Origin: Alphaproteobacteria bacterium
GTDB lineage: Bacteria > Pseudomonadota > Alphaproteobacteria > Rhodobacterales > Rhodobacteraceae
Assembly: GCA_024279075.1 (NCBI GenBank)
Contig: JAJRRX010000126.1
Coordinates: forward strand, 1 to 30,919
Length of the DNA stretch: 30,919 bases
Direction of reading: 5' to 3'
The stretch's first letter is position 1, and every line of letters starts with the position of its first letter. The translations under genes and the position numbers were made by a program. The notes under the pieces are model-generated. The model saw only the letters and a list, made by a program, of their open reading frames with translations, did no database searches and was not told the DNA's origin. Shown here piece by piece: positions 14,802 through 29,306 of the stretch.

Positions 14802-15779
14802 CTATTCTTGCGCAACAATCTTATTCAGGCGCGCTATCTCTTTGCTAATTTCGGCCTGTTTGGCTTTATCGCCTGCCTTCATAGCTTTGCTCCATGGCCC
14901 ATCAGAGGCCATGAGCTGCGCCTTCTTCGCCTTCGCCTCAGCTGGCGTGGTGGTCAGGCCTGCACCGCTGCCAAGGCCTTTCAGGCTGTCCTCGCCCATC
15001 AGGTCCGCAAGGCTAGCAAACATTTTCATCACCATCGGGTCGCCGGTTTGCTTGCTCAGGGCCGAAGCAGCCGCGAGCTGCTCGTCGGCATCCATGCCCG
15101 CCGCCTCCGCCAAAGCCTGAAACGCTGTTTGCGCTTGGCCGATTTTGGCATCTGTCTGGTCGCCCCAGTCCTTTTGCAAGGTGGCGCGCATTTCGTCATT
15201 GGCTTTTTTGAGGTTGCCATCGGCGTTGCCAACAATCGTCCCCATGCGTTCGGCATAAAGCCCTTGCAGCTTTTCCAGCGCGGCGGGCGGAATGCCCTCT
15301 TCAAAGGCGATCTGGCGCGCGCCGTTCATCAGCTCGTCATCCACCGGCATGCCGTCGGGCAGATTCAGCTCGGGCAACTCGTAGCCCTCTGGCTTGTCCG
15401 GCAGGCCAAAAGTTTCGGCATTGGCGCGCATCCACTCGGCGGTGGTCTGCCCTTCAGCGGGGCGGTCCATCAGGCTTTCGGCGGGTTTTCCAAGGCGGGC
15501 CTCGGCATTGCGCCAGCCCTCAATCGCCTTGCCAAGCACCTCGCCCTGGTCTTCCTTCAGCAGGTCTTTCTTGGTCATCCAGTCTTTGGCAGGGGCATAG
15601 GTTTCCCCCTCCCACCAAAGCTTTTCATCACCGCCGCCCTCACCAGTGCCGCCGCCTTCACCTTGGCCGCCATCTCCACCAGCGCCGCCCTCGCCGCCGC
15701 CTTCACCACCAGCGCCGCCTTCATCGGCAGGATACCAAAGCGGGTGGCCGTTAATCATGTTCATCAGGTGCGTGTTCAT
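14802..15779 (-). CDS. Head scaffolding protein (325 aa)
   Basis: Gly/Glu low-complexity N-terminus, RLGKP...GLPDKPEGYEL and LQKDWG motifs, basic C-terminal helix. Lies between portal and capsid genes. Confidence 0.8.
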   Translation of the reverse strand: MNTHLMNMINGHPLWYPADEGGAGGEGGGEGGAGGDGGQGEGGGTGEGGGDEKLWWEGETYAPAKDWMTKKDLLKEDQGEVLGKAIEGWRNAEARLGKPAESLMDRPAEGQTTAEWMRANAETFGLPDKPEGYELPELNLPDGMPVDDELMNGARQIAFEEGIPPAALEKLQGLYAERMGTIVGNADGNLKKANDEMRATLQKDWGDQTDAKIGQAQTAFQALAEAAGMDADEQLAAASALSKQTGDPMVMKMFASLADLMGEDSLKGLGSGAGLTTTPAEAKAKKAQLMASDGPWSKAMKAGDKAKQAEISKEIARLNKIVAQE

Positions 15780-16086
15780 AAGTGTTCTCCTTCAAGAGTT
15801 GGTTAATTTCAAAATTGGAAACGTGCATCATGGCCAAAATGGCGAGGCCAAGGTCTCGGCGGCCGCGATCGTAGGCCAGCTCCAACGCGATGGCGTTAAG
15901 GCGATCAGTCTCGCTCACATCGCCGTAAGCCATGATCTTGGCCATGATGATAATATCTTCAGCCATTTCCGGCTGCTTGGCATTGGCGCTGGACCAGCGC
16001 GCAATGCGGTCACGAACTTCGCGCGGCACCGAGCGGCCGCCAAAGGGGCGCGTCAAAATGCCAAGGCGGGTGAAAAACCCGCTCAT
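15751..16086 (-). CDS. Small head-associated protein (Bbp19-like position, 111 aa)
   Basis: ATGA overlap with portal stop. ...ELAYDRGRRDLGLAILAM motif. Confidence 0.7.
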   Translation of the reverse strand: MSGFFTRLGILTRPFGGRSVPREVRDRIARWSSANAKQPEMAEDIIIMAKIMAYGDVSETDRLNAIALELAYDRGRRDLGLAILAMMHVSNFEINQLLKENTYEHAPDEHD

Positions 16087-17732
16087 GGCGCACCGCCCTC
16101 CGCTTGGGCTTGAGCGAGGTCTTTCACCATGCCAGCGCCGTCTTTGCCCATTTGCATGGCCTGCTGGGCCTGCATGGCTTGTTGGCGATCTGCGGCCATC
16201 TGGTCGGCCTCGTCACGCGAGCGCAGGATGTCGTTGGAAGCGCCACGGGCTTCCACCAACCGCTCGACCAGCTCGTCTTCGTTGATCCGGTCCAGCAAGC
16301 GCGGCTTGGCTTGGGCCAGCGGGGTGAGGTCATTGACCACACGCAGGGCGGCCACGCCCTCGGTGGCCTTCTGGGCCATGCTGGCCGCCGAAAGGTATTT
16401 CACATCCAGCGGCTGGCCCTCGGCCTCGGGTGGGGGTGGCGGAATTTGGCCCGCGCGCCACAGCATGCTAAAGCGCCGCGTGATTTTGCGCACAAGGTAT
16501 TCCTCTTGCAGGCGGCCCATATAGGGGGCCATCAGGCGGGCGTATTGCTCCTGCCGTTCAAGGCTTTCAAGGGTGGAAACCCCAGTTCGTCCCACCATCG
16601 AGCTAAGTGTATACATGAAGATTTCGGCAATATTGCCAGCTTCCTCCCGTTGCATTTCCAGCGAGAGGCCGGTGCCGCGCGAGGTGTCCAGAATGTCCAC
16701 CTGCCTGCGGCCGTTGATCATGCCACCATAGAGCACACCCTCGGGGCGGCGCTGGCCATGCAGGGGCCAGCCGTCCTTGTCGGGGGCGAGCATGGTGGGC
16801 GAGGCGGCAAATTGGGCCGAACGGATGTTGGCTTCCTTCTGCAAATTCAGCAATTTGGAGCCAGCAAGCGCCATATGGCCAAAGCCAGTGCCGTAGGTCT
16901 GGCCAGTTTCGACATCGAGGCGCGGGGTATGGAAGGGCATTTCCATGTAGCCGCTCTCGCGCACCACCGCGCGGCCCTCTTCCGCGCCATAGGTGGATAA
17001 CCAGCGCTTGCCCTTGGGGCCAATATATCCACCCATGAAATCGGTGTTTTTCTGCACATGGTGGTAGAAGGTGAAGTCATCATTGCTACCTTTTTCCACC
17101 GCAACACGGATCTTCTCGGGCAGGTTATCCAGCCCGAATTCAGCGGCGGCTTGGCGGGCTTTCCAGCTGAACTTGCGCACCACCTCCACCACACGGCCCC
17201 AACCGTCAATCGCATACACAATCTCGGCCATCGGGATAGTTACATCGAGGATGCGGCGCTCTTTGGTATTGATTTCATCGTAATTGGCGGCATTGCCAAT
17301 CATCACCGTGTCACCGATAACCTGAAGGGAGGACGGGTAAAACGAGCTGATATTGGGGCCAAAGCTGGCCAGCACGCGCGCGCTCACAGCTTCTTCCCAC
17401 TGCTTCACAGCATGCACCTTGCGGCGGTCCTTATCGCCGATCTGCATACCAAACCACTTGTTGCCAGGGTTCATCATGGTGGACCACATGGTGCTGGTCA
17501 GGGCTTTCTGGTAAAGCACCGGCTCGCTGGAAAGCACCTTGTTGGCGGTTTTCTTGTTGCCGGCATTGGCGCGGAAAGGCAAAGCGCCCATAAAGCGCTT
17601 GATGTCCTGCCAGTCCGGCTTCAGGTGGCTGCGCGCACTGTCCAAATCCTCCCAGCGGGTCACCATTTTATCAACGCGGCTATCCTTTTCCAAAGGGCCA
17701 ACTGTCTCATTCGGGGAGCTATCAAGCGGCAT
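16083..17732 (-). CDS. Portal / head-to-tail connector (549 aa)
   Basis: Size and motifs (VVEVVRKF, PR...GQTYGTG, T.E..ER..., GQIPPPPPE, YLSAASMAQK) typical of T7/BPP-1-type connectors. Confidence 0.92.
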   Translation of the reverse strand: MPLDSSPNETVGPLEKDSRVDKMVTRWEDLDSARSHLKPDWQDIKRFMGALPFRANAGNKKTANKVLSSEPVLYQKALTSTMWSTMMNPGNKWFGMQIGDKDRRKVHAVKQWEEAVSARVLASFGPNISSFYPSSLQVIGDTVMIGNAANYDEINTKERRILDVTIPMAEIVYAIDGWGRVVEVVRKFSWKARQAAAEFGLDNLPEKIRVAVEKGSNDDFTFYHHVQKNTDFMGGYIGPKGKRWLSTYGAEEGRAVVRESGYMEMPFHTPRLDVETGQTYGTGFGHMALAGSKLLNLQKEANIRSAQFAASPTMLAPDKDGWPLHGQRRPEGVLYGGMINGRRQVDILDTSRGTGLSLEMQREEAGNIAEIFMYTLSSMVGRTGVSTLESLERQEQYARLMAPYMGRLQEEYLVRKITRRFSMLWRAGQIPPPPPEAEGQPLDVKYLSAASMAQKATEGVAALRVVNDLTPLAQAKPRLLDRINEDELVERLVEARGASNDILRSRDEADQMAADRQQAMQAQQAMQMGKDGAGMVKDLAQAQAEGGAP

Positions 17733-17922
17733 TGGGCACCCCCCCGAGCGTGTTGGTGGCCGGAATGCCGCGTGGGCTGGTCAGAATGTTGGCGGCGGCA
17801 CCGCCGCGCAACTGGCGCAAGCGCGCCTCGATGTCGCCTTGGCGCTGGCTTTCCTGGTTGGTGGTTGCCGGAATAATGGCAGGGCGCGGGGCGGCGGTGG
17901 CTTGCTTTTGATACAGGCACAT
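17722..17922 (-). CDS. Small virion protein preceding portal (66 aa)
   Basis: SD AGGAG, MC-start, RxxRGG..xILTS..G...TLGG pattern in the usual pre-portal slot. Confidence 0.75.
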   Translation of the reverse strand: MCLYQKQATAAPRPAIIPATTNQESQRQGDIEARLRQLRGGAAANILTSPRGIPATNTLGGVPNAA

Positions 17923-17926
17923 GGGG

Positions 17927-18475
17927 TTAGGTCTCCTTCTGGGGGTAAGATGGGGGGCGGGGGATGTAATCAGCGAGCCAAACCCATTGGTTCAGGTTCA
18001 CCTCGCCACTATGGCCAAAGCCGATCATCTCGGCGTCCAGCTCAAAGCCGATGGCGCGTAGCAGGCTGGGGGCGGTGGGGTGGCCTGCCCAGCTGCGCGC
18101 CTCGATGCGGTGCAGGCCCATGGCACGGGCCTGCGCGGGGAAGCCGTCGCGGATCGCGCGGGCAGCTGGCACCAGCGCGCGCCTCCAAATCCGATGGTCG
18201 CGCGCCAGCATGGCCGCATGGCCAAGCCCGGGCGTGCCACCGCGCACAATCGCCATCACGGCAATCGGCTCGGCATAGGGCGGCGCAACCTGCGCCACAA
18301 AGCACGCGGCCCCCTGTTTTTCCAGCGCCATCCAGTCTGCCAGCATGTCATACGGAAGCGCTTTATCACCGCGCATCACCTCGGCTTCGAGCTGGTCGTT
18401 TTCGTCCAGCATTTCAAAAACACGCAAGGCATCCGGCGGGTTAAATGGCGCAAGGGTCACAAGGGGCCGTGTCAT
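17927..18475 (-). CDS. GNAT-fold protein (T7 gp13-like head assembly factor or acetyltransferase, 182 aa)
   Basis: GLHRIEARSW...LLRAIGFELDA is a RimJ/GNAT-like C-terminal motif. Confidence 0.7.
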   Translation of the reverse strand: MTRPLVTLAPFNPPDALRVFEMLDENDQLEAEVMRGDKALPYDMLADWMALEKQGAACFVAQVAPPYAEPIAVMAIVRGGTPGLGHAAMLARDHRIWRRALVPAARAIRDGFPAQARAMGLHRIEARSWAGHPTAPSLLRAIGFELDAEMIGFGHSGEVNLNQWVWLADYIPRPPSYPQKET

Positions 18476-18487
18476 AGGTCAGGCCTC

Positions 18488-19267
18488 CTAAGCCGCGTCT
18501 TGCTGCGCAGCAATCCGCCGCACCGCCGCCGCCCAGTTTTTCAGGGCATTGTGAAAGCCAGCTGGGCCAGCGGCGATCAAGCCATAAATCTTGACCGTGT
18601 GGATAGGGGCATCGCCGTCAAATTCAGCCCCATTGATCTGCACAAGCTTGGCTTGCAGGGCCGAAATATCGGTGGGCATGTCGCCCAGCTCACCGGCCAG
18701 CAAAATCGCGGCATTCATGTCCTTTTCGTTGATCGCCTGCGGCTTTTTGAGGGCGCGCTCTTTGGCTTTGGCGCGTTTTTTCTTCTCGGCTTCGCGCTTT
18801 TTCGCGCCCGCATCGGCCTCTTTGGCCTTGGCTTCCTCTGCGGCCAGCCGCGCCTTTTCAGCCTTGATCGCCTCAGCATTGTCCTCGGCATCAGCAATGA
18901 TCTTGGCCGCTTTGGCCTCGGCCTGTTCAATAATCACATCAGCATCATTCTGCGCATCTGCAATCTCATCATCCGTCAACTCGGCCTTTTTGTCGGCTTC
19001 AGAGGTTATATCAGCCGCCTGCGCCTTGGCATCCTCAATGATCTTGGTGGCTTCCTTCGCGCCAATGGTTGCGATCTCCTGCACCTTGTTGGTGCCATCC
19101 TCCACAATTTTAGCCGCCTTGGCCTCGGCCTCGGCAATCAGCCCACTGGCACGGGCTTCTGCATCAGCCACAATATCGGTGACCTTGGCATCATCTGTCA
19201 GAGCTTCAGGCGCACCCTTCACTTCATCAGCGGACAGGGTATCACCTGCAATTTTGGTCTTGCTCAT
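18488..19267 (-). CDS. Hendecad coiled-coil protein, function unknown (259 aa)
   Basis: 11-residue repeats (IVADAEARASG, LIAEAEAKAAK, IIEDAKAQAAD, IIEQAEAKAAK...), a Lys-rich linker and a globular C-terminus. Confidence 0.8.
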   Translation of the reverse strand: MSKTKIAGDTLSADEVKGAPEALTDDAKVTDIVADAEARASGLIAEAEAKAAKIVEDGTNKVQEIATIGAKEATKIIEDAKAQAADITSEADKKAELTDDEIADAQNDADVIIEQAEAKAAKIIADAEDNAEAIKAEKARLAAEEAKAKEADAGAKKREAEKKKRAKAKERALKKPQAINEKDMNAAILLAGELGDMPTDISALQAKLVQINGAEFDGDAPIHTVKIYGLIAAGPAGFHNALKNWAAAVRRIAAQQDAA

Positions 19268-19270
19268 AAT

Positions 19271-21019
19271 CTAATCTCCATAGGGGTTGGTTACGTCATA
19301 TCCGGTCTCGATCCCGCCACCGTTCATCGGCGGGCCTCCGTTATGGCCGAGTTTTTCAGGCACATCATTGCGCCCAAAACTGTTGGGGCTGGAGCCGTCA
19401 GGCTTCGCCTTTGAAAGCAGCAGGTATTGCAGCCCGTCCATCACATTGGCCTCGACCTTGCTCTTGTCAGGCACCTTGCGCTTGTCGCCGCTGTTGTTAA
19501 TCTCTTCGGCCCACACATAGCGCGCCTCAAAGCCTGCGATCAGGTATTTGCAGCTCGGGTCAATCAATATCCCGGGCTTGCCATTGCGGATAAATTCGAG
19601 CTGGGCGCGCACCGCTTCCAGCCGCGGGTTAATCCGGTTGGTGCCCATGCGCTGCGGCTTCACCCGAAAGCCCGCCGCCTTGCCCACCATCAGGTTCCAT
19701 GTGGCGTTTTCATCCGCCGCTTGGCTGGCGCCGTGTTCGCCCGCCATGTCGCCCCAGGCACCACCCACGCGCATGCCAGGAAAGCGCTTGCGCAGTATAT
19801 CCTTCAGCTCTTGGCCAAATTTCACCGCCATAAGTCGCTTTTTGGGGAACATCAGCTCGGCCAAAATCACCCAATGACCAGGCTCATGGTATTGCGCCAC
19901 CACGGCCGCACCCTTGAAGCCTTGGTCAAGGCCAATATAGAGCGGCTTGCCGGCATCGGGCTGCAATTTGGTCGGGGATACATGGATTTGGCGGCTGAAT
20001 TCATCCTCAAAAACAGGGTCACCCACCTTCAGGTAAACCGTTTGGTTATAAACCAGCCGCTTCACTAGGTCGCCCCGCCCTGCCAGCTTCATGGTGGCGA
20101 TCTGGGTCGGATAATAGCTGGCGGGCAGGTTTTGCAGGTTTTCGCACCTGTCCTCGCCATAGCCAGCCTGTTTGTGGAAGCCGATCTCTATCGGGTGGAA
20201 ATCGGTGCCGGCCTTTTCCGCCTCGGCTTGCAGCGCCCCGTTCAGCGTGGCAATCACCTCTTTGCGCTTTTCCTCGTCATAGAAAAAATCAAAGGACCAG
20301 TTATCCTCATCCGGTGCGTTGAAATCCCCCACCAGCTGGCCATAGTCGCGATATTTTGCAGGGTAACCCTTAAAATGCGCCTGATCGGGAAAGCGCTTGA
20401 TGCGGGTAATGCCGTTCACCAGCACATCGAGCGGGTTGGTGTCCATCTCATGCAGCCAAATGTCGGTGGTCTGAATGCCCCGCATCGCCGCCACCACATC
20501 ATCGCCAAAAGCCATGAACTCCACGGTGAACTCGATCCGCCCGTGTTCATCCTCAAACCACATCACAAAGTTAACCGGCCCGCCGCGCCCGCCAGACCAC
20601 TCTCCAAGGTCTTTCGGGAATACCTTTAGAAAATCCGGAATGGTGGTAGACCAAAGCTGGCGATAGGTGGCGCGGGTCACCATCAGCTTGTAGCGCCGCA
20701 CCCCGTCAATCACCGACATGGGCATCATCACCGCGCGCCGCAGGCGGGATTTGAGCAAGGTGGTGGTCTTGCCCGAGCCAACAGGCCCGTTGATCCCCAC
20801 CACGGCGCTATCATCCCAATACATTTTCTCCGCCACCCGACCGGGGAAATCCAGCGCCTCGATATCGGGCTTGTCAGTGGCCAGCTCGCCGGTTATCGTC
20901 GCCAAGCCGTCCTCGATCGACAGGGTGTGAAAATCAGCATCGCTCATTCCCCCTGACCCCGTGGCCGGATTTTCCTGCAACCCCGTGCCCCCGTCCAAAT
21001 TGTCCATCGTCGCGGTCAT
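19271..21019 (-). CDS. terL: Terminase large subunit (582 aa)
   Basis: Walker A GPVGSGKT, Walker-B-like IWLHE, RNase-H-like YIGLDQG and C-terminal MDGLQYL. Start at ATG 21019 (SD GAGGT); ATG 20947 is an alternative. Confidence 0.92.
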   Translation of the reverse strand: MTATMDNLDGGTGLQENPATGSGGMSDADFHTLSIEDGLATITGELATDKPDIEALDFPGRVAEKMYWDDSAVVGINGPVGSGKTTTLLKSRLRRAVMMPMSVIDGVRRYKLMVTRATYRQLWSTTIPDFLKVFPKDLGEWSGGRGGPVNFVMWFEDEHGRIEFTVEFMAFGDDVVAAMRGIQTTDIWLHEMDTNPLDVLVNGITRIKRFPDQAHFKGYPAKYRDYGQLVGDFNAPDEDNWSFDFFYDEEKRKEVIATLNGALQAEAEKAGTDFHPIEIGFHKQAGYGEDRCENLQNLPASYYPTQIATMKLAGRGDLVKRLVYNQTVYLKVGDPVFEDEFSRQIHVSPTKLQPDAGKPLYIGLDQGFKGAAVVAQYHEPGHWVILAELMFPKKRLMAVKFGQELKDILRKRFPGMRVGGAWGDMAGEHGASQAADENATWNLMVGKAAGFRVKPQRMGTNRINPRLEAVRAQLEFIRNGKPGILIDPSCKYLIAGFEARYVWAEEINNSGDKRKVPDKSKVEANVMDGLQYLLLSKAKPDGSSPNSFGRNDVPEKLGHNGGPPMNGGGIETGYDVTNPYGD

Positions 21020-21225
21020 GTTTTTGCCACCTCGATTTGAAAATGCCCCTTGGCCTCTGTGCGAGGGGCAGAGGGGGCGAGCGCGGGGGGCACCCCCCCC
21101 GTTTTTGAAATCCGGCCGCTGCTGGCCAAAAAGCAAGGGGGGGTGGGGGCAATCGTCCGAGCGCAACTATTTTCTAAACAGTAGGTTTGCAGGTGATTGT
21201 TGTTTGTTTTCAATAGGTTGCTCAT
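21016..21225 (-). CDS. 69-codon ORF bridging terS and terL; product not protein-like
   Basis: ATGA overlap with the terS stop and ATGA overlap with the terL start. Confidence 0.35.
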   Translation of the reverse strand: MSNLLKTNNNHLQTYCLENSCARTIAPTPPCFLASSGRISKTGGVPPALAPSAPRTEAKGHFQIEVAKT

Positions 21226-21857
21226 ATCGTCCGACCATCCTTTAAATTGTCGCCGCTTTCAATTTCGCTAACCGCTTGATTTTGTACAATTTCTTTTGGC
21301 ATAGGTGGCGGTGACATCGCCCGCCCTTTGCGGCCCTCAATCACGGTTGGCGCGGGGCCATCGCTGCCGCCTGGCATCACAATCTGGGTGATCTGCGAGG
21401 TGTTCACGTTCACATCAGGCGTGACCTTACCCAGCCCGAAGGGCAGCACGGCCTCGGCCCGCCTGCCCATATCCTTGTAAAGATCAGTAAACACTGCCAG
21501 CCGCTGGCCCACCGAAGCCTGAAAGTCGCCAGGATGCTGCCCGCCAGCCCATGCCAACACCTCTTCGGCGCGCTGCATGGCCAAAATGTGAGGCGGCAAG
21601 CGGCTGTCCAGCCCTGCCATCAGGGCCAGCACGTCCTCGGGCTGTCGGAACCCCTTGGCGGCCAGCATGGCCTTGAGCTGGGAGCTGCTCTTGTTTTTCG
21701 CCCCCTTCGGACGGCCAGCACCGCGCTTTTCCGGCACCAGCTCGCCGCCCTCGCCATCATCAGACGGCAGAAACGTCAGCTGCTCGCCCAGCTCCCGCGC
21801 CTGATCCAGCCGCTTGGCAATCGCCTCTGCCTCAATCTCTGCCTTGGCCCTTTTCAT
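21222..21857 (-). CDS. terS: Terminase small subunit (211 aa)
   Basis: KRGAGRPKGAKNK motif, size and position upstream of terL. Confidence 0.7.
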   Translation of the reverse strand: MKRAKAEIEAEAIAKRLDQARELGEQLTFLPSDDGEGGELVPEKRGAGRPKGAKNKSSSQLKAMLAAKGFRQPEDVLALMAGLDSRLPPHILAMQRAEEVLAWAGGQHPGDFQASVGQRLAVFTDLYKDMGRRAEAVLPFGLGKVTPDVNVNTSQITQIVMPGGSDGPAPTVIEGRKGRAMSPPPMPKEIVQNQAVSEIESGDNLKDGRTI

Positions 21858-22372
21858 CCAATAAATCCCCGATAAACAAACGGTTTTTTCATCATATTGA
21901 ATGAAAACAATGACTTACCACTATTTAGGCAAGCGAGCTTAACAGGCTTGCACCACCTAGCGGTTGCGAGGTGCAACGGTGCAACAAAAGCGTTGCACCG
22001 GCGTTGCAGTAAAACTTTTAATGAAATCAGAGCCTTATAATACTTATGCAACGGTGCAACGGTGCAACGGTATATATGCGTCGTGTGCGCGCGTGTGTGT
22101 GTGTGTGTGCGCGCATACGCGAGGCTTTTGCGCGCAAAACCGTTGCACCGTTGCACTTGCTGGCTAAAGCCCTGATTTTGTTTGTTTTTTTGCTGCAACA
22201 TTGCTGCAACATTGGTGCAACAAAATCGAAAATGTTGCACCCTGCAACCGTGGGTATAAGGAAACCGACGCGCACGGGCTGCAAAGCCTACGTTACGCGT
22301 TTGGGCGCATCCGGTCAAGGGTGCGGGGTGAAGAAAACGGCGGCGCGGGGTCTGGGGCGCGGGATGGGGCAT
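21854..22372 (-). CDS. 172-codon ORF spanning the putative origin; product not protein-like
   Basis: SD AAGGA 7 nt before ATG 22372. Stop overlaps the terS ATG (ATGA). Confidence 0.3.
   Translation of the reverse strand: MPHPAPQTPRRRFLHPAPLTGCAQTRNVGFAARARRFPYTHGCRVQHFRFCCTNVAAMLQQKNKQNQGFSQQVQRCNGFARKSLAYARTHTHTRAHTTHIYRCTVAPLHKYYKALISLKVLLQRRCNAFVAPLHLATARWCKPVKLACLNSGKSLFSFNMMKKPFVYRGFIG
21963..22248. repeat. Iteron-like TGCAAC/GTTGCA array, putative replication origin
   Basis: 9 TGCAAC (21972, 21980, 22047, 22055, 22063, 22194, 22205, 22216, 22243) and 5 GTTGCA (21992, 22003, 22142, 22150, 22234) in 8- and 11-bp periods, immediately downstream of the helicase gene. Confidence 0.75.
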
Positions 22373-22383
22373 AACGCAGTCCT

Positions 22384-24222
22384 TTACTCGAAATCTTGGA
22401 TGTCGGCGGGCTGTGGGGGCTTAGGCGGGGCCTCTGGCGGCTCTGCCGCCTCCGGCGAGCCTTCTTCGCCAAAAAGCCCAGGGATCGAAGCCAGCGGGAA
22501 CTTCCAGCACCGGCTCTTCACCATGTTGAAGCTAAGCGCACTCGTCGCGGTTGCGCTCGGAATGCGCCGCGTGGCTTGTGACCACACACCATTGCTGGCG
22601 CTTGATGAATACCAGCGGGTGTCTTTGAACAGGCGCGCGAGGCCGTCATGGCTGTTGGCAATGGCGAGCTGTGCGCCCTCCTTGCGGCCATAGACGCGAA
22701 TGCCGATTGAGCTTAAAGCGTGGGTTGCTTTGGCCATATCCTCGCCATCATCCAGCCCTGCGGCCACCAGTATCCAGCGGCCCACGGTGAGCTTTTCACC
22801 GCCGCGAAATACATCGAGCTGCTGGCCGAAAAGATAGTTGAGGCAGCGCTGCCAGTCGCTACTCTGCTGAGCCTGGTCTTGCACCACGCGGGCCGATAGC
22901 TTCTCGCTCCAGTTGTTAAGGCGGGCCTCGTCCGGCTCGCTGTCAAATAGCACTAAATCGGCCATGGTCAGCAGGGTGCCGAACTGGTCGCAGCCACGGT
23001 GGCTGTGGCCGGCCGCGGCCAGCGCGCCGCGATAGGCGTTGAGCGTGTCGTGCATCCGGTCCCAATTTGCCAGCACCATGCTGCGCAAAGCTTGGCCCAC
23101 TCTGCCCCATTTTTTGGGGTCCGGCTTGGGGGCCTTGGAGCCTTTTTTAAGGGTGAGCAGGTCCAGCACCGCGATGCGGCTTATGTCCTGGTCAAGCATA
23201 TCAGGAACAAGGATCGAGGAAAACAGGTAGCTGTTTTTTACCAGAAACTCGCTGGCCTTGTGGTCCTGCCCGCCACGAATAACCTTGCCGCCTGAGCTGG
23301 CGAGGCGGGCGAGCTTGACCACGTCTTTCACCCGGCGGCTGTCGGCCTCGGCCTCCAGCTCGTCAATCGCCACGGGGATGGTGCTTTGGCCGGTATATTG
23401 CCGGATCGCCGCCTCGGTCGCCCCTGCGGGCTGTAGCAGGCTGTTTTTGCCAAAAATATCGCCGATGATCTCTTGCAGGGTCGATTTGCCGGTGCCCGCG
23501 TCGCCGGTGAGCCACACCATGGGCCGCCAGCGCAGGGCACCGCCAAACAGGGCCGAGCATATCCAGCCAAGCAGCAAATAAGCGTCCACGTCGCCCCGGA
23601 GCCAGTGCCAGCTCTTTAAGGTGGCGAGCAGCTCGGCGGCGGGGGATTGGTCATCGGCGCTTATGAATTCGGTAAGGGGGCGCGGGGTGCGGATATCTGA
23701 CGGGTAAACATAGCCGTCAATCTCGCCTGGTTCTTTCCAGTTGCCCTTGTAAAGCACCGCGCCGCCGCAATGCAGAATGATGCCGCCCTCGCCATCAGGC
23801 CATGCGCCAAGCCCGCGCACGCGCTCGGTGGCGTTCCACACGCCCTTATCGGTGCAGGCGCGCACCATGGCCTCGGCGGCGGCCGCCTGATCAAAGCCGA
23901 TCACCTGCGGCGGCGAGGTTTCGCTGCCCTTTGACCAGCGCGGGAATTCGCCTTTCAGCAGGTCCACCCGCCCGCCAAATATGCCGCGAATGCGATCAAG
24001 GTCATGCTTTTTAACATCGGCAAGCTGGCCCAGATAATCGAGATAATAATAAACAGGCCCCTGCACGCCAAGCGCGGTGACCGGAGAATTCGGAAAGATC
24101 ATCCCGCGCGTCTCCAGCGGCCCCTCGGCCGCCTCGTGCTCGCTGGCTTTGGGCGGGTCCAGCTCGCCGCGCAGCAGCTCAAGGCTGGGCTTTTTCGGGT
24201 CTGTTGTGGCGGGCTTGGTCAT
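22384..24222 (-). CDS. Replicative helicase / P-loop NTPase (SF3-like, 612 aa)
   Basis: Walker A GDAGTGKST, Walker B PVAIDE. Located after the Toprim primase. Confidence 0.85.
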   Translation of the reverse strand: MTKPATTDPKKPSLELLRGELDPPKASEHEAAEGPLETRGMIFPNSPVTALGVQGPVYYYLDYLGQLADVKKHDLDRIRGIFGGRVDLLKGEFPRWSKGSETSPPQVIGFDQAAAAEAMVRACTDKGVWNATERVRGLGAWPDGEGGIILHCGGAVLYKGNWKEPGEIDGYVYPSDIRTPRPLTEFISADDQSPAAELLATLKSWHWLRGDVDAYLLLGWICSALFGGALRWRPMVWLTGDAGTGKSTLQEIIGDIFGKNSLLQPAGATEAAIRQYTGQSTIPVAIDELEAEADSRRVKDVVKLARLASSGGKVIRGGQDHKASEFLVKNSYLFSSILVPDMLDQDISRIAVLDLLTLKKGSKAPKPDPKKWGRVGQALRSMVLANWDRMHDTLNAYRGALAAAGHSHRGCDQFGTLLTMADLVLFDSEPDEARLNNWSEKLSARVVQDQAQQSSDWQRCLNYLFGQQLDVFRGGEKLTVGRWILVAAGLDDGEDMAKATHALSSIGIRVYGRKEGAQLAIANSHDGLARLFKDTRWYSSSASNGVWSQATRRIPSATATSALSFNMVKSRCWKFPLASIPGLFGEEGSPEAAEPPEAPPKPPQPADIQDFE

Positions 24223-24965
24223 AGGGCAAAACTTTTCTTTTGATCAGGGGTTGACAACAGCGCCAATGGCGCTAAATTGTAAGATGTCACAAGGGCAATG
24301 AAGCCCGCCAAATAGGAGATGACATTATGAAAAATGAAGCCAAAATTTACAAAAATATGCGCGAAATAGCAGCGGATTTGGAACCCAATCAAATCAAGCT
24401 GGTCATCATGAAAAACTACAATGACTTCGAGGTTCCTACGGAGGCCATCAGCGCTTTGCTGGATGTCCTCGAAGCTAAAATCGGCAGCGCCGAATTTGTC
24501 GGCTTTTGCAACATCCTCAACCAATAAGGAGCCGAAAAAATGACAAATTTTGAGAAAGCCGTTCGCGAAGGTTACAAGATTGAAAAATACGGGGATAATA
24601 GCCAGTGGTTCGTCGTTGACAATTTCGGCACTTGCTGGGGCTATTATTTCACCGAGCGTAAGGCTATTAACGCCATGAGCCGAATTGGCAAGGGCTACAA
24701 CTAAAACAACTGGCCCGCTTCGGTGGGCCATGAAAAACAGGGAGACACCATGACCCCCGAAGAATTCAAAGCCGCCCGCAAATCCTTGGGCCTTACGCAA
24801 GCCCAGCTCGGCCACGTGCTGGATACCGCGCCGCAAACCATCCGCAAATGGGAAATGCCGGCGGGTCGCAGCACAGCGCGCGGGGTTAACCCCGTAGCGG
24901 CCCGCGCCATGGGCTGGATGCTGGCAGGCTTCCGCCCACCCGAATTTCCGAAGGATCAGCGCCAA
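24219..24965 (-). CDS. 248-codon ORF antisense to the three-gene cassette, coupled to the helicase start
   Basis: GGGGAGG SD then in-frame TTG at 24965, 2 nt after the upstream stop. Ends with a TGA overlapping the helicase ATG. Composition is shadow-like. Confidence 0.3.
   Translation of the reverse strand: MALILRKFGWAEACQHPAHGAGRYGVNPARCAATRRHFPFADGLRRGIQHVAELGLRKAQGFAGGFEFFGGHGVSLFFMAHRSGPVVLVVALANSAHGVNSLTLGEIIAPASAEIVNDEPLAIIPVFFNLVTFANGFLKICHFFGSLLVEDVAKADKFGAADFSFEDIQQSADGLRRNLEVIVVFHDDQLDLIGFQIRCYFAHIFVNFGFIFHNVISYLAGFIALVTSYNLAPLALLSTPDQKKSFAL
24251..24278 (+). promoter_or_regulatory. Sigma70-type promoter with a 15-bp palindromic operator
   Basis: TTGACA (24251)-N16-TAAATT (24273). 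AGCGCCA-A-TGGCGCT at 24259-24273. Confidence 0.75.
24327..24527 (+). CDS. Hypothetical protein (66 aa), cassette gene 1
   Basis: SD AGGAG, AT-rich (33% GC in 24301-24360). Confidence 0.8.
   Translation: MKNEAKIYKNMREIAADLEPNQIKLVIMKNYNDFEVPTEAISALLDVLEAKIGSAEFVGFCNILNQ
24540..24704 (+). CDS. Hypothetical protein (54 aa), cassette gene 2
   Basis: Below the ORF-track cutoff. SD AAGGAG. MTNFEKAVREGYKIEKYGDNSQWFVVDNFGTCWGYYFTERKAINAMSRIGKGYN. Confidence 0.75.
   Translation: MTNFEKAVREGYKIEKYGDNSQWFVVDNFGTCWGYYFTERKAINAMSRIGKGYN
24711..24730 (+). other. C(UUCG)G tetraloop hairpin between cassette genes 2 and 3
   Basis: TGGCCCGC-TTCG-GTGGGCCA 8-bp stem with one G-U pair. Confidence 0.65.
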
Positions 24966-24971
24966 GCCTAA
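24750..24971 (+). CDS. XRE-family helix-turn-helix protein (73 aa), cassette gene 3
   Basis: MTPEEFKAARKSLGLTQAQLGHVL....QTIRKWE is a classic HTH. SD GGGAG. Confidence 0.88.
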   Translation: MTPEEFKAARKSLGLTQAQLGHVLDTAPQTIRKWEMPAGRSTARGVNPVAARAMGWMLAGFRPPEFPKDQRQA

Positions 24972-25150
24972 ACCCTCCCCATAGCCGCGCGGCGGCGGCG
25001 TTGGCGGGTCATTTTGTCGGCGCTCGGGGTGTTTTCCCAGATCTTGCGGTGCGCCTCCAGCCGCGCCGCTGCCCGCTTGTTGGCGGGGGTAGGCTTTTTT
25101 TGGCCGTAATGTGGCTTGAAGAGTTGCTTCAAAAGATCGTAAAAATTCAT
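24968..25150 (-). CDS. Small basic hypothetical protein (60 aa)
   Basis: MNFYDLLKQLF...RQRRRRAAMGRV. ATGA overlap with the primase stop. Confidence 0.65.
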   Translation of the reverse strand: MNFYDLLKQLFKPHYGQKKPTPANKRAAARLEAHRKIWENTPSADKMTRQRRRRAAMGRV

Positions 25151-26298
25151 GCTGCACCTGCGCTTTCCTGTTGGTTTTTGATCATCATCAGGGCATCGTT
25201 TAGGTCTTTGCCCCCATGGGTGTTTTTCCAAATGCTCACCTCGCGGCCTTGCTTCAAAAAATGAGTTTGCGCCTGGTCAATCAGCCGCAGCTGCTCTTTG
25301 CCGTCATCATTATCGGCCACAATGGTGACGCGGGTAATGGCGGCAGGTAGCTGCACCTCTTTGAGATTGCCAAGCGAAATGGCACAAAGCACGCGCGCGT
25401 GGGGGTGGATCACCGCCACGCTCAGCGCGTCCTCGATGCCCTCGGTAATGTAAACATGGTCACCAGCTGGCGCTTTGCTCAGGGGCGCGGCTTTGCCGCC
25501 GCGCGGGCCGGTGCCGGTCCAAAGGCGGATATAGCCGCCCTGCATCGAGCCAAACACTTTTTTAGGGCTGGGCACAGGGGCCTTGCCCCAGTTTCCGGCA
25601 TCATCTTGTGCAAGATACGTGCGGTGAACGCCCCAAAATTCCGGCGCGCTGCCATCCTCATGCGCAGGGCCATAAATGGCGGCGATCATGGCGGGGTAGG
25701 GGGTTTCGCTATATTCGCCGGTTTCGGGGTCCGTATGGAAATAGGTGCAATGGGGCATGTAGCGCAAAGAGCCAGGGGCGCGGCCGAGCACATCGAGGCC
25801 GATGGCGCGGTTGGCGAGGTAGGCCGCCACAGGCGTGCCTGTCAGATCCTCTTGCGCCTGTATGAACATCGCATGCGCGCGACCGCGCTTTTGCTTGGTC
25901 AGGGCCTCGGCATCCTGCGCGGCGCGGGCGCGGCGGGCCTTGGCTTCGGCTTGCTTGCGCAGGCGCAGGGCCTTTTGCTCGGGGGTTTCGGTATCCATGC
26001 CCAAAAACTGGCGGGCCTCGGTAAGCGCGGTGCGGGCATCGCAGCCAAGCGCATAACGGATCAGGTCCAGCATGTCGCCATCTTCACCGCTGGCATGGTC
26101 ATGGTAGCGTCCGGCATAGGCGCCGGTCAGGTTTACATAAAACGAGCCAACGGCGCGGTCGGTGCGCCAGGGGTTCAGCGCCCAGTATTTGCCCTTGTCC
26201 ACCCGCCCGCCTGGCGCATAGCGCTCGGCCACCTCGAGGGTGCGGGCCTTTAGGGCCTCGGCAATCTCCTGAATGGTGGGCAGGGCGGGGCGGCTCAT
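25147..26298 (-). CDS. Toprim DNA primase (383 aa)
   Basis: Toprim motifs YITEGIEDALS, IVADND and GKDLND. N-terminal degenerate DnaG zinc-finger-like region (SFYV...GDMLDLI). Confidence 0.9.
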   Translation of the reverse strand: MSRPALPTIQEIAEALKARTLEVAERYAPGGRVDKGKYWALNPWRTDRAVGSFYVNLTGAYAGRYHDHASGEDGDMLDLIRYALGCDARTALTEARQFLGMDTETPEQKALRLRKQAEAKARRARAAQDAEALTKQKRGRAHAMFIQAQEDLTGTPVAAYLANRAIGLDVLGRAPGSLRYMPHCTYFHTDPETGEYSETPYPAMIAAIYGPAHEDGSAPEFWGVHRTYLAQDDAGNWGKAPVPSPKKVFGSMQGGYIRLWTGTGPRGGKAAPLSKAPAGDHVYITEGIEDALSVAVIHPHARVLCAISLGNLKEVQLPAAITRVTIVADNDDGKEQLRLIDQAQTHFLKQGREVSIWKNTHGGKDLNDALMMIKNQQESAGAA

Positions 26299-26301
26299 GG
26301 C

Positions 26302-27366
26302 TTAGGCCGCCTTGCGGGCAAGCTGGGCATGGGCGGCAAGGGTCTGCTTGAGCTTGGTCTGGCGCTCGGTGAACGGGCCTGCGGGCATCGCCTCGATCAG
26401 GGCGTTATAGCGCGCCACGCAATCCGGCTTGGTGCGCTCCAGAATGATTGACACATCGAGCATAGGCAGGCCCCGGTGATGCTCGCTCACAAGATCAAGG
26501 TCATCCTCGATCGGCCAGTTTTCATCAGGGCAGGGGCGGGGCAAAATGCCCTTGCCGCCCTCGGCCTTTGAGGCAGTTGTGGGGGCGGCGGAAACGGGGC
26601 CAACCACCTTTGAGGCGGGCGTGACTGCCGGTTTTTCCTGAGCATCCCGCAGATTATAAAACTTTTGCGTCACACCCTTAACAGGCCGGTTCAACTTCAG
26701 CGCAATCACCTTAAACGGCACGGCTTCTGCGCGCATCTCCAGCAAGCGCTTTTCTTCGTCCAGTGTCCACGGGCCTTGCTCATAGATAGGCGTGGCTGGG
26801 ATTTTGCTCTCTGGCTCCATCTCCGCCTTTATCCGCTCGATGCGCGCCGCGCAGTTCTTGGTCAGCCAGAACATTTTCGAGGCGCAGGTGCGCTCTTTGC
26901 GGCCCAGCAGCTCGGTCAGCGCCTTGAACGGCTTACCTTGCAACCGCCCCTTGATCAGCACGTCCTCTTCATCTTTGGTCCAGCGCACGCCATGGCTGGA
27001 ATGGTCTTCGAGCCTTTCCTCTACCGCCTCCGGCGCTTCGGTCTGCTCCGGCACCGGCGCAGGGCTAAAGGCCGCTTGCGGGGCTATCGCGGTGCGCGGC
27101 TGCGGTGCAGGGCTTTCTGGCTCTGTCTCTATGTCCGCCAGCACGTCCTTCATGTCGCGCTCTGCCATGCTTTTCAAAAATTCTGGTGTTCGTATTTCAA
27201 TCGTTGGCCTGCCTTCGATCTCGATGCGATCTTCCGGCACGCATCCGTGTATCTCCACCGCGTCCAGCACTATGCGCAAAACGCCGAAGTTAAACTCAAC
27301 CGGCAGGTTGAGGCCTTCGATGTCGTTCATAATGGCGTCAATGTCTGTTCCCGAAAATCGCTTCAT
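26302..27366 (-). CDS. Protein with three Myb/SANT/GcrA-like HTH repeats (354 aa)
   Basis: WTKDEED.L...G....L...LGR; WTLDEEK.L......IA.KLNR; WPIEDD..L.......+...LERT. Start refined to MKRFSG (ATGA overlap). Confidence 0.8.
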   Translation of the reverse strand: MKRFSGTDIDAIMNDIEGLNLPVEFNFGVLRIVLDAVEIHGCVPEDRIEIEGRPTIEIRTPEFLKSMAERDMKDVLADIETEPESPAPQPRTAIAPQAAFSPAPVPEQTEAPEAVEERLEDHSSHGVRWTKDEEDVLIKGRLQGKPFKALTELLGRKERTCASKMFWLTKNCAARIERIKAEMEPESKIPATPIYEQGPWTLDEEKRLLEMRAEAVPFKVIALKLNRPVKGVTQKFYNLRDAQEKPAVTPASKVVGPVSAAPTTASKAEGGKGILPRPCPDENWPIEDDLDLVSEHHRGLPMLDVSIILERTKPDCVARYNALIEAMPAGPFTERQTKLKQTLAAHAQLARKAA

Positions 27367-27695
27367 GGTTTTTTCCCTTGGCTTTGCTGCCACGCGCCCA
27401 TTGAAAGCGCGTGTTTCCAGCGGTGGATTTTTTCCAGGCTGGCAGCCAGGTGAAACTGGGCCGCTGTCAGGCCCGCGCTGCCCCGCTTGGGGTGGTAATG
27501 CGCCACCAGCTCGTCAACGGCAGTGGCAAGGTCATCAATCAATCGGTTTTCGCGGGTCACCTCTGGCAGCACGTCCTTGAAGGTGGCGAGCGCATCCTGC
27601 ATGGCCGAGTGGTTGCGCACCCGCGCCACCGCGATCTCGGTCGCGGCATTAATCAGGCAATGGTCCGCAAGGCTGAACTTTTTGGGCTTATCCAT
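27363..27695 (-). CDS. Hypothetical early protein (110 aa)
   Basis: Start refined to MDKPKK (8-nt overlap ATGGATAA). Stop overlaps the next ATG. Confidence 0.7.
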   Translation of the reverse strand: MDKPKKFSLADHCLINAATEIAVARVRNHSAMQDALATFKDVLPEVTRENRLIDDLATAVDELVAHYHPKRGSAGLTAAQFHLAASLEKIHRWKHALSMGAWQQSQGKKP

Positions 27696-28029
27696 TGATA
27701 TCCGCCCTTTGCTGCCAGGCATACATATCCGGCCCTGCGGCCTCGGCCGCGTGCAGCGCCGCCTCGGTGGCAATGGCGCGGGCAAAGCGCGCGGGCCCAA
27801 TGTAGCTTTGCAAAAATGCGCCCAGCTGCTCACCAGCGGCCACCTGGTCGCGCTGGCACAGGTTGTTAAACACCAGCACCGCCGCGCACACCTCGTCATC
27901 CTCACGGAAAAACGCCAGCGCATCGGTGAGCAGGTTCAGCCGGTCACGCAAGCCAAGCTGCCCCGCCTTTGCGGCCATGCTCACCTTGGTTAGCCGCAGG
28001 CCAAATGCTATTTTCGGGTCAAATCCCAT
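27688..28029 (-). CDS. Hypothetical early protein (113 aa)
   Basis: Helical protein ending in a WQQRADI motif. Overlaps the downstream start. Confidence 0.72.
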   Translation of the reverse strand: MGFDPKIAFGLRLTKVSMAAKAGQLGLRDRLNLLTDALAFFREDDEVCAAVLVFNNLCQRDQVAAGEQLGAFLQSYIGPARFARAIATEAALHAAEAAGPDMYAWQQRADING

Positions 28030-28306
28030 AGCCGCCCCCGCGCGAAACGGGCAGAAACAACGCGGGGGCAGCTCTCAGCGCTACTACGCTGCGGCTCAAT
28101 CCGGCTAAAACAGCCGACACCGGAGAGGGGAATTCACGCAAGGCGCGGCGTGGGTGTCTGACGGGACTTAGCCGCCACGCCTTGCGATTTTCGGCGGCAC
28201 GCCTGCTCTGCGCCGAAAATGGGAATAAAAAGCCGCGCGGCGCTACTTGGGGCCGCGCGGAAGTCCAACAGGGAAGTTTAACAAAAATACTCGTTACAAA
28301 ACTCAT
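28019..28306 (-). CDS. 95-codon ORF after cro spanning a terminator and an SD-sequestering hairpin
   Basis: ATGA overlap with the cro stop. Ends 11 nt into the next gene. Confidence 0.4.
   Translation of the reverse strand: MSFVTSIFVKLPCWTSARPQVAPRGFLFPFSAQSRRAAENRKAWRLSPVRHPRRALREFPSPVSAVLAGLSRSVVALRAAPALFLPVSRGGGYGI
28224..28260 (-). terminator. tR1-like intrinsic terminator downstream of cro
   Basis: CCGCGCGGC/GCCGCGCGG 9-bp stem (28233-28241/28252-28260), followed on - by CTTTTTATT. Confidence 0.7.
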
Positions 28307-28590
28307 GCCGCCACCTGCACGCTGTCCGGCGCGGGCATCAGCGCGGCTATCTCGGCCTCGCTCCCGCCATAAATCAGGTGGTCCGCCGTCAGCGCAATGC
28401 GCCGCTGCGCAGCCGCCGCCAGCAAGGTGCGCATAATGCGCGGGCTGGGGATATCCCCTGCGTCACGCATTTTGGACCCGTTCTTCCACGCAATCGGCGT
28501 CTTTTCGTGCTGGCCAAGGATGGCCGCCACGCCCTTATAGCCGCCAAGCAGGCGGAAAGTGACATCGGTTGGTGTAAGGTGGCTACTCAT
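28303..28590 (-). CDS. Cro-like repressor (95 aa)
   Basis: LGGYKGVAAILG...T.IAW...G.IP HTH pattern. Divergent from cI. Confidence 0.85.
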   Translation of the reverse strand: MSSHLTPTDVTFRLLGGYKGVAAILGQHEKTPIAWKNGSKMRDAGDIPSPRIMRTLLAAAAQRRIALTADHLIYGGSEAEIAALMPAPDSVQVAA

Positions 28591-28653
28591 GCCCTAGGCT
28601 TAGATTAACAGGTGTGAGCCTGTCAATGGGGTTTGTTCAAAAAATGAACAAAC
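28571..28653. promoter_or_regulatory. cro/cI divergent promoter-operator region
   Basis: TTGACA on - at 28626-28621. Palindrome GTTTGTTCA-N5-TGAACAAAC at 28631-28653. 18-bp box GGTGTAAGGTGGCTACTC at 28571-28588. Confidence 0.75.
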
Positions 28654-28685
28654 AAATTCGAGAGCTGCGCATTATATCTCACAGT

Positions 28686-29306
28686 ATGAATATAGATTGG
28701 TTCAAGCGCAGGCAGCAAATTGCCAATGTCACCTCTTTTGATCTGGCCGAGGCGATCGGGCGGAACAGGGCGGTAATATCGCGCATCTATCACGGCAAGC
28801 AAAAGATGACGATGCAGCAAGCTGAAGCCTTTGCCAAGGTTCTGGACGTGCCGCTTTCCGAAGTGCTGCTCAATGCCGGCATTGCCAGCAAGGAAACGGT
28901 GCAGGAGCTTAACCCTGGCTTCGCTGAAAGCGACGTGGCGCAATGGGTGCCAAAGCCGGAAAGGGCAGAGGGGCCGGATATCGAGGCTATGGCCAAAGCC
29001 CTCGGCGGTGGCCGTAACGGGGTCGATATCTGGCGGGTTAAATCCCGCGCTATGGCCTTGGCGGGCTATCTGGAAGGCGATTATATGCTGGTGGACACCC
29101 ACCAGCGCGACACCTGCCAGTCAGGTGATGTGGTGCTGGCACAGGTCTATGATTTCAATGTCGGGGCCGCCACCACCATCTTTCGGCGCTTCCAAGCCCC
29201 TGTTTTGCTGGCCGCAAGTGCCGATCCGGCAGAGTGGGGCGTGCATGTGGTGGATCATAACGCGGTGGTAATCATGGGCAAGGTTGTGGGGAGCTGGCGG
29301 ATTTAG
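28686..29306 (+). CDS. CI-like repressor, HTH plus S24-type C-terminal domain (206 aa)
   Basis: N-terminal HTH (TSFDLAEAIGRNRAVISRIYHG) and LexA-like C-domain. No SD; TATATC lies 7 nt before the ATG, consistent with a leaderless mRNA. Confidence 0.92.
   Translation: MNIDWFKRRQQIANVTSFDLAEAIGRNRAVISRIYHGKQKMTMQQAEAFAKVLDVPLSEVLLNAGIASKETVQELNPGFAESDVAQWVPKPERAEGPDIEAMAKALGGGRNGVDIWRVKSRAMALAGYLEGDYMLVDTHQRDTCQSGDVVLAQVYDFNVGAATTIFRRFQAPVLLAASADPAEWGVHVVDHNAVVIMGKVVGSWRI

Follow-up and report, generated by a model that had tools for sequence, protein, structure and literature searches.

Long phage transcripts can be kept from termination by dedicated factors. Lambda N and Q act by processive antitermination and P4 Psu by polarity suppression, each factor modifying RNA polymerase or inhibiting Rho (PMC11718236). 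The same problem would face a temperate-phage module on the minus strand of the alphaproteobacterial DNA described here (Rhodobacterales, Rhodobacteraceae), a stretch of 30,919 nucleotides (nt) that we call the window and that is a complete 30.9-kb contig (C234; JAJRRX010000126.1) from a metagenome-assembled genome (MAG; GCA_024279075.1) that is 82% complete. No factor of this kind was recognised in it, and what is proposed instead is purely a matter of how the reading frames are arranged. Four open reading frames (ORFs) of the rightward operon, B1 to B4, do not look like protein genes and run across other elements or, in B4, a spacer. They are probably translated placeholders, under selection for openness and for the register of their junctions and not for the peptide that they encode. 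The four ORFs and the elements within B1 and B3 are listed below, with forward used throughout for the direction of the operon; none of the four has a match in PHROGs (Pfam was not searched for these four).

28019-28306, minus strand: B1, placeholder ORF of 95 codons, from cro to the next gene
28224-28260, minus strand: forward-facing intrinsic terminator within B1, its G+C stem of 8 base pairs (bp) closing a loop of 12 nt, with a TTTTTATT tail
24219-24965, minus strand: B2, placeholder ORF of 248 codons, its frame open from 25157
21854-22372, minus strand: B3, placeholder ORF of 172 codons
21941-22253, no strand assigned: iteron array, purine-pyrimidine tract and AT-rich patch, origin-like or packaging-site-like DNA
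21016-21225, minus strand: B4, placeholder ORF of 69 codons, with an ATGA overlap at both ends

There are precedents for translation as an influence on termination. In an engineered Escherichia coli reporter (Li et al. 2016, PMC4824070), a ribosome close behind the polymerase represses intrinsic terminators, which is a direct mechanistic precedent for read-through of the terminator found some 75 nt from the start of the cro-coupled B1; the phage arrangement differs in being natural, in occurring in 7/9 genomes and in forming part of a wider tiling. In Mycobacterium tuberculosis, translation of upstream ORFs is reported to block Rho loading (preprint, 10.1101/2022.06.01.494293). B1 resembles these upstream ORFs and those of trp-type attenuation in that the act of translation and not the peptide would decide the progress of the polymerase, and in that a predicted ORF overlaps an intrinsic terminator. 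Leader ORFs usually have fewer than 30 codons, stand at the 5' end of an operon and serve as sensors, whereas the placeholders have 60-430 codons, are internal and are chained by overlaps. Unlike leader ORFs, each placeholder also spans a whole cis-element or cassette, and no antiterminator structure or sensing codons were identified, although no systematic search for alternative pairing was made.

The noncontiguous operon, in which antisense genes are nested, offers another comparison, and it is also described from Staphylococcus phages (PMC11087260, PMC11034616). At our locus, opposite-strand genes with promoter-like sites are likewise nested between the primase and helicase genes, in a variable accessory spot, and their immediate neighbours, a gene of 60 amino acids (aa) and the helicase gene, are co-oriented and would be co-transcribed. 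A difference is that a search of PMC11087260 by term found neither Rho nor untranslated among its words. We found no report in the literature of an operon-strand ORF that is kept open through nested genes, or of phase-locking or avoidance of TTA, CTA and TCA in such genes. The origin of lambda lies inside gene O, and that of P22 inside gene 18. B3 is like these in having iteron DNA within a frame of the rightward early operon, but lambda O is a conserved initiator protein, whereas for B3 no conserved DNA-binding initiator emerged: its peptide has no sign of constraint, no family match and no confident fold. Finally, translated antisense overlapping genes, or shadow ORFs, of G+C-rich bacteria have been argued to be protein-coding and under purifying selection (PMC8850804). 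ORFs of the B2 type are similarly long in-register antisense ORFs; they differ in spanning several unrelated genes together with the spacers, in being wholly different between cassettes and in being defined by their flanking junctions. No description was found in the literature of long internal ORFs kept for openness alone across cis-elements. The ingredients (coupling, polarity, leader ORFs, terminator repression, noncontiguous operons, an origin within O, shadow ORFs) are known.

Between cro and the stop codon of the scaffold gene (28590-14802), the minus strand is tiled by 19 ORFs with one terminal stop each. Their junctions range from -29 to +12 nt, the largest untranslated gap being the 12 nt from g259 to g182. 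An earlier note on this DNA had claimed that no untranslated gap exceeds 12 nt over this interval, and our rebuilt tiling gives the same figure, with the four non-protein-like ORFs in place and three of them (B2, B3 and B4) ending in an exact ATGA overlap. Of the elements that these ORFs were said to cross, the terminator (B1), the antisense cassette (B2) and the spacer between the terminase genes terS and terL (B4) were found as described; the DNA under B3, which had been called the origin, is an iteron region that can be termed only origin-like or packaging-site-like. B1 starts with the ATG of an ATGA overlap with the cro stop, and its last 11 nt are shared with the gene that follows. B2 starts at a TTG 2 nt past the stop of the 60-aa gene, with GGGGAGGG upstream, and ends in an ATGA with the helicase start. 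The ATG of B3 lies 11 nt past the helicase stop, and its end is an ATGA overlap with terS. No RNA gene was detected in the window by Rfam (gathering thresholds) or ARAGORN, so the interruptions are not known RNA families.

Relatives were anchored on the helicase, whose 436 homologues led to 13 related loci and 12 distinct relatives at 87-42% helicase identity. Contigs were taken for homologues from 87% to 45% identity, together with one IMG/VR contig at 42%, and all loci were oriented with the operon on the plus strand. The useful relatives came from a protein collection and contig look-ups: a helicase search of 60 MAG-related genomes gave only one distant homologue, a scan of genome contigs gave none, the matches in the phage collection were all at or below 37% identity, and IMG/VR yielded the one locus. 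Albimonas donghaensis (L016) and Roseobacter sp. N2S (L017) carry related prophages, as do Rhodobacterales isolates.

The openness of the frames is shared by these genomes. A single stop-free forward frame runs from cro to the next gene in 9/9 genomes (the window and eight relatives), and such a frame also joins helicase to terS (440-550 nt, G+C about 0.5) in 13/13 and terS to terL in 10/10, the window included in both counts. In-frame stops number 0 in 748 codons (B1), 2069 codons (B3) and 718 codons (B4); off-frame stops occur at 0.033, 0.051 and 0.040 per codon, respectively, and the other frames are mostly stopped, with up to 16 stops in a frame. Equivalents of B1 and B4 start nearly always in an NTGA overlap with the preceding stop. 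Those of B3 start 8-13 nt past the helicase stop in 10 of the 13 genomes, mostly with ATG, and overlap the helicase 3' end in the rest. The ends are mostly ATGA or 8-11-nt overlaps with the next start. The expectation that openness and junction register would persist while the peptides diverge was thus borne out in every relative examined.

How far single genomes can carry this point depends on the placeholder. Under dinucleotide shuffling of the window, the probability of an open frame was <0.0005 for B2 and 0.0065 for B3, and the shuffle check that had been proposed came out weak for B1 (0.04) and B4 (0.2). Taken genome by genome, the probability was 0-0.06 for B3 in each of the 13 genomes and 0.04-0.5 for B1 and B4. 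For B2, shuffling is the wrong null, because TTA, CTA and TCA are rare (~1%) and about 28-49% of ordinary genes in these phages have an open in-register antisense frame, the share among small genes being about 40-49%. Alone, the window is only suggestive, since the openness of B1 and B4 could be chance; the comparative data lift the pattern far above chance.

Whether the peptides are under constraint was judged from the ratio of nonsynonymous to synonymous substitution rates (dN/dS) and from the differences at each codon position, both computed with a pairwise aligner. For B1, B3 and B4, dN/dS was 0.54-1.06 and the differences were flat over the three positions. For the helicase, terL and primase, it was 0.10-0.31 (0.37 for one distant primase pair), with somewhat higher values for cro and terS in distant pairs, and the differences in the helicase (0.13/0.08/0.35, for example), terL and most primase pairs were concentrated at the third position. 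The G+C content at the three codon positions (GC1/2/3), which is about 0.65/0.45/0.73 in the real neighbouring genes, was 0.59/0.61/0.58 in B1, 0.53/0.49/0.51 in B3 and 0.49/0.56/0.61 in B4. Individually, B1 had a dN/dS of 0.56-0.84 with change equal over the codon positions. B3 covered the full range of 0.54-1.06, with 0.28/0.25/0.31 differences per codon position between the window and relative L009, and the corresponding figures for B4 between the window and L005 were 0.36/0.36/0.33. The earlier note had predicted a dN/dS near 1, and most pairs lie at 0.55-0.7; protein-guided alignment and constraint at the DNA level both lower the value.

The alignments of the placeholders contain many indels of 1, 2, 4 and 5 nt, and only 45-85% of aligned bases are in the same phase. 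In B4, between the window and L005 (79% nucleotide identity), a near-identical 35-nt block is read in two frames and resynchronised by indels of 1-2 nt, such that the DNA CTTTTTGGCCAGCAGCGGCCGGATTTCAAAAACGGGGGGG gives CFLASSGRISKTGG in the window and YLFGQQRRDFKKGG in L005; frame switching of the same kind is seen between L012 and L014 (85% identity). Indels in multiples of 3 had been predicted, and that expectation failed, the indels being mostly compensated ones of 1-2 nt. Because identical DNA is thereby read in different frames, this is stronger evidence for a disposable peptide than multiples of 3 would have been. Together with the conserved openness and the flat substitutions, the frame switching strongly supports the proposal that the ORFs are selected for openness and register rather than for peptide. 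Of the marks of a conventional gene, the placeholders have an open frame with a conserved start and stop (9/9, 13/13 and 10/10), and they lack the signature of purifying selection, the GC3 pattern, DNA kept in the same frame and a family match or confident fold. Their peptides appear not to be conserved beyond the underlying DNA motifs.

Those motifs are clearest in B1 and B3. The B1 hairpin, CCGCGCGG-N12-CCGCGCGG followed by TTTTTATT, has a computed energy of -20.9 kcal/mol. It is retained with its TTTTTATTC tail in 7/9 genomes, and its stem letters vary among relatives with pairing retained, which is not a formal covariation test. In a single fold of the B1 region it was the only stable element, although alternative pairing was not systematically searched. 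The recurrent B1 peptide motif SAR...APRGFLF is the terminator stem and U-run DNA in translation. Within B3 lie at least 12 copies of the 8-bp iteron GGTGCAAC/GTTGCACC, in both orientations and at 8- or 11-nt spacing. Iterons at 8-nt spacing are read in different frames, and the B3 peptide motifs QRCN and CTVAPLH are iteron DNA. AlphaFold2, run on an alignment of 12 B3 sequences, gave a predicted local distance difference test score (pLDDT) of 48 and a predicted template modelling score (pTM) of 0.20, that is, no confident fold. Midway through the iterons, at 22082-22120, stands an alternating purine-pyrimidine (CA/CG)n tract, which may serve in unwinding or be prone to form Z-DNA. For B4, a terminator-like G8/C8 hairpin with a T-run (21085-21100, plus strand), which faces antisense within the ORF, was considered as the conserved reason for the frame and rejected, being present only in the window and L005.

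Some further observations concern the same placeholders. In L011, a single forward frame of 393 codons (476-1657) starts in an ATGA on the upstream gene. It first crosses a DUF4145 gene in antisense, next reads the cro-like gene in a frame other than its own, then covers the B1 region and ends in an ATGA with the following gene. From the ORF translations, the repeat unit of B3 appears to differ among relatives, and the (CA/CG)n tract is found mid-region in every relative. An NPLK(T/N)-like motif, approximately AACCnnTTGAAAAC in DNA, occurs in the window at about 21890-21915 and at 21205-21222, and in most relatives one copy precedes the terS start by about 30 nt and another directly follows the terS stop, which implies a candidate repeat flanking terS.

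B2 differs from the other three in lying opposite three plus-strand genes, of which it is the antisense in exact register. Its frame has 0 stops, whereas the two alternative frames have 11 and 15. The cassette beneath it, and those nested in the rightward operon of relatives, are composed as follows (HTH, helix-turn-helix):

24327-24971, plus strand: antisense cassette of three genes in one phase, without TTA, CTA or TCA codons
24327-24527, plus strand: cassette gene, 66 aa
24540-24704, plus strand: cassette gene, 54 aa
24750-24971, plus strand: cassette gene with XRE-type HTH, 73 aa (HTH_3, E-value 3e-6)
Window and L010: nested cassette of HTH, 54-aa and 66-aa genes
L009: nested cassette of HTH and 189-aa genes
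L014: nested cassette of HTH, 95-aa and 185-aa genes
L005: nested cassette of 132-aa and 113-aa genes
L011: nested DUF4145 gene upstream of cro

The nested plus-strand genes are the real coding frames of the cassette. They carry GGAG-type Shine-Dalgarno sites, with a promoter-like site at 24251-24278 on the plus strand, and in two differing cassette genes of the window and L010, 17 of the 31 differences fall at the third codon position of the cassette genes. The HTH protein has weak antitoxin-like matches, all under curated cut-offs, and PADLOC assigned the embedded genes to no defence system, returning only weak matches to the HTH alone. In all of the genomes with opposite-strand genes nested in the rightward operon (6/6), a single forward ORF (248-434 codons) covers these genes from end to end and stops at the start codon of the following forward gene. 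The genes within each cassette are in mutual phase, and in every case the forward ORF uses the frame that is antisense to them and in register. As a stop in that frame can arise only from TTA, CTA or TCA in the nested gene, it is avoidable by synonymous choice. These codons make up 0/1401 in the nested genes vs 0.9-1.1% in other genes, an avoidance that, given the Leu and Ser content, has a combined P of 1e-4 under average codon usage and 1e-8 under low-G+C usage, figures that do not yet count the phase-locking and the open spacers; the openness is thus not that of comparable antisense frames in the same genomes. The cassettes of the window and L010 are not independent cases, being 94% identical.

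The interval between primase and helicase is a variable spot for accessory genes, with forward genes in some relatives and opposite-strand cassettes in others. The 94% identity of the cassette DNA (window 24219-25150 vs L010 3138-4069) stands beside adjoining helicases that are only 68% identical as proteins, which points to a recent lateral exchange of the cassette. An early-region accessory hot spot, in this interval and nearby, was noted in L004, L005, L011, L012, L013, L015 and L017; the early region of L004 carries a gene resembling phosphoadenosine phosphosulfate (PAPS) reductase, and several relatives have genes of anti-defence type (Acb2/Tad1-hairpin, Tad2-like, Lockin), some of the insertions being flanked by unbridged gaps.

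The same genomes also hold gaps without such frames. The interval from the scaffold gene to the major capsid gene measures 218-254 nt, like the gaps filled by B1 and B4, and a properly joined ORF spans it in 0/8 genomes; stops occur in all three frames in 7/8, and in L016 the one stop-free frame lacks a proper junction and continues for 271 nt within the capsid gene, out of frame with it. In the window, the tiling ends at this feature, which is also found in L005:

14748-14777, minus strand: strong 13-bp terminator hairpin with a T-run, just past the scaffold gene

This interval of about 250 nt is the one large rightward gap that lacks a bridging ORF in every genome examined, which suggests a deliberate transcript boundary or a processing site before the capsid gene. 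In the leftward operon, from repressor to integrase, nested opposite-strand genes are bridged in 0/4 cases, with 3-14 stops in every frame, and gaps of 288 and 460 nt are unbridged.

Several points weigh against our reading. The relatives are not phylogenetically independent, and drift by substitution alone from an open ancestor would leave B1 or B4 open with a probability of 0.2-0.3 per lineage. Since these two ORFs are short, the case for them rests on the number of diverged lineages, on the compensated frameshifts and on the controls. The dN/dS values, mostly 0.55-0.7, leave room for weak constraint on the peptides. Rightward gaps do remain unbridged in L013 (7307-7435 and 7725-7898, which adjoin the Acb2/Tad1-hairpin and Lockin accessory genes, apparent recent insertions) and in L015 (15721-15992, 270 nt), so the tiling is strong but not absolute. 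Good Shine-Dalgarno sites precede terS, terL and the gene that follows B1 (median -7 to -8.6 kcal/mol), so that these genes can be initiated without coupling. The 13.8 kb may also comprise more than one transcription unit, as promoter-like hexamers lie on the operon strand within B2 and again downstream of it. Finally, translation of the frames, a single transcript and the avoidance of Rho and of terminators are all things that we infer from the sequence.

These points have to be set against three other explanations. The frames could be by-products of base composition and codon bias, as shadow ORFs in G+C-rich DNA are, kept in common through shared ancestry. Long spurious ORFs do stand opposite real genes in the window (444 and 342 codons, for example), and the share of open antisense frames, the single-genome shuffle probabilities for B1 and B4 and the drift estimate all fit this explanation. 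It nevertheless seems very improbable to us, as it leaves unexplained the counts of 9/9, 13/13, 10/10 and 6/6, reached although stops are present in most of the alternative frames, the low shuffle probabilities of B3, the retained junction register with compensated indels, the phase-locked embedded genes with no stop-complement codon in 1401, and the leftward operon, whose embedded genes and gaps of the same size go unbridged in the same genomes. B1, B3 and B4 could also encode ordinary small phage proteins that evolve fast (ORFans, some perhaps basic or disordered), in DNA that carries cis-elements as well, in the way that lambda gene O carries the origin, and whose coding signatures these elements mask. 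Their position, approximate length and start and stop context are kept in every genome examined, several were picked up by gene callers, most dN/dS values are under 1, short motifs recur (PAPxxxG at the B3 N terminus, NPLK near its C terminus), and AlphaFold2 draws two low-confidence helices for B3. We regard this as unlikely all the same: substitutions are even over the codon positions, there is no GC3 excess, frames switch after indels of 1-2 nt, the recurrent peptide motifs coincide with DNA repeats read in several frames and both orientations, PHROGs offered no match and the AlphaFold2 scores were low, and the B2-type ORFs across unrelated antisense cassettes would still want an explanation.

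The third explanation is closest to our own, in that the frames would be open only for translational coupling, by which ribosomes are delivered to the next start codon and a fixed stoichiometry is kept, with transcription termination uninvolved. ATGA or short overlaps at nearly all junctions are what it would predict, as is the very weak Shine-Dalgarno site of the helicase behind the antisense cassette (-1.1 kcal/mol in the window, -2.4 in L010). Yet the sites of terS, terL and the gene after B1 equal or better the operon average, a short upstream ORF would suffice where 70-430 codons cross the whole gap, and the presence of a conserved terminator inside B1 would go unexplained. Accordingly, the idea that downstream genes depend on coupling for lack of sites of their own was kept for the helicase alone and dropped for terS, terL and the gene that follows B1, and we consider the coupling-only explanation rather unlikely. 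Selection of placeholder frames for openness and not for product appears well supported on the combined comparative evidence, and avoidance of Rho and of terminators is a plausible benefit of it; an alternative benefit might be that the mRNA is shielded from RNases or kept from pairing with transcripts of the cassette.

For placeholders that are translated, the following sequence of events is proposed. Ribosomes finishing cro, the 60-aa gene, the helicase gene or terS would reinitiate immediately on the placeholder, traverse the cis-acting DNA or RNA element and stop atop the next real start codon, and the rightward transcript from cro to the scaffold gene would never be free of ribosomes for more than about 12 nt. 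Coupled transcription and translation would then read through the forward-facing intrinsic terminator after cro. Rho, whose gene is present in the MAG, would be denied naked RNA over the stretches of 270-1300 nt that lack a forward gene, and the helicase, with its weak site in cassette-bearing genomes, would be initiated by coupling. For the cassettes the solution is apparently the cheapest one: one shared phase, a forward frame that is the in-register antisense, and avoidance of TTA, CTA and TCA. The wider claim is that, in this lineage of Rhodobacterales temperate phages, conduit ORFs without sequence constraint evolved as an alternative to factor-dependent antitermination, keeping the rightward transcript continuously translated and forcing inserted opposite-strand genes into one phase without the three stop-complement codons; here we see the arguments for and against as evenly balanced. 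A search of the early ORFs for an antiterminator family (Pfam, PHROGs, NCBIfam) gave no match, which is weak evidence, as proteins of the N and Q type are poorly conserved.

If this account is true, the architecture itself would protect a long phage transcript from Rho and from intrinsic terminators without an N-, Q- or Psu-like factor, and a reading frame would be selected as a physical track for ribosomes. There would then be a class of ORFs that annotation misses, or labels "hypothetical protein" despite the lack of a functional product, and the translatability of the opposite strand would dictate the synonymous codon usage and the phase of a gene. The account also predicts rules for the insertion of accessory genes (morons) into phage operons. 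A change that is synonymous in an embedded gene can create a stop in the conduit, and rewriting a conduit peptide by a compensated frameshift should be neutral. It could serve as a design principle for long synthetic operons.

The surrounding genes follow a temperate-phage order. On the minus strand come the cro-like gene, two small genes, a weakly Myb-like gene and the Toprim primase, and then the primase/helicase-like gene, putative terS, terL, a T7-type portal, the scaffold/protease-like gene and the major capsid. The main genes are:

28614-29306, plus strand: cI-like repressor, with an HTH and a weak, sub-threshold Peptidase_S24 match, divergent from cro
28303-28590, minus strand: cro-like gene, first of the rightward operon, 95 aa, identified from position and divergent orientation
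24968-25150, minus strand: real gene of 60 aa, GC3 0.74, joined to the primase stop by an ATGA overlap
22384-24222, minus strand: DNA primase/helicase-like gene, 612 aa (phrog_21086, 8.8e-75; phrog_35358, 3e-46)
21222-21857, minus strand: putative small terminase (terS), 211 aa, assigned solely from its position before terL
19271-21019, minus strand: large terminase (terL), 582 aa from the ATG at 21019 (phrog_2, 8.5e-12), dN/dS 0.10-0.22
14802-19267, minus strand: remaining tiled genes, namely those of 259 aa, 182 aa and 66 aa, the portal, a 111-aa gene and the scaffold/protease-like gene
17732-16083, minus strand: portal (phrog_332, 5.8e-95)
15779-14802, minus strand: scaffold/protease-like gene, last tiled ORF

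The coding signature of cro is normal (GC1/2/3 0.65/0.52/0.76; dN/dS 0.21-0.25 against close relatives). A coding signature is also present in terS, whose sole family match is phrog_15261, of unknown function. Pfam and NCBIfam scans of the small early genes gave nothing informative, and homologues of the 60-aa gene, 62-64 aa long, were called in L009 and L010. The 259-aa gene that follows terL (18488-19267, minus strand) is repetitive and highly rich in Ala, Glu and Lys, without a family match, and the product encoded in its slot ranges from 87 to 349 aa across the relatives.

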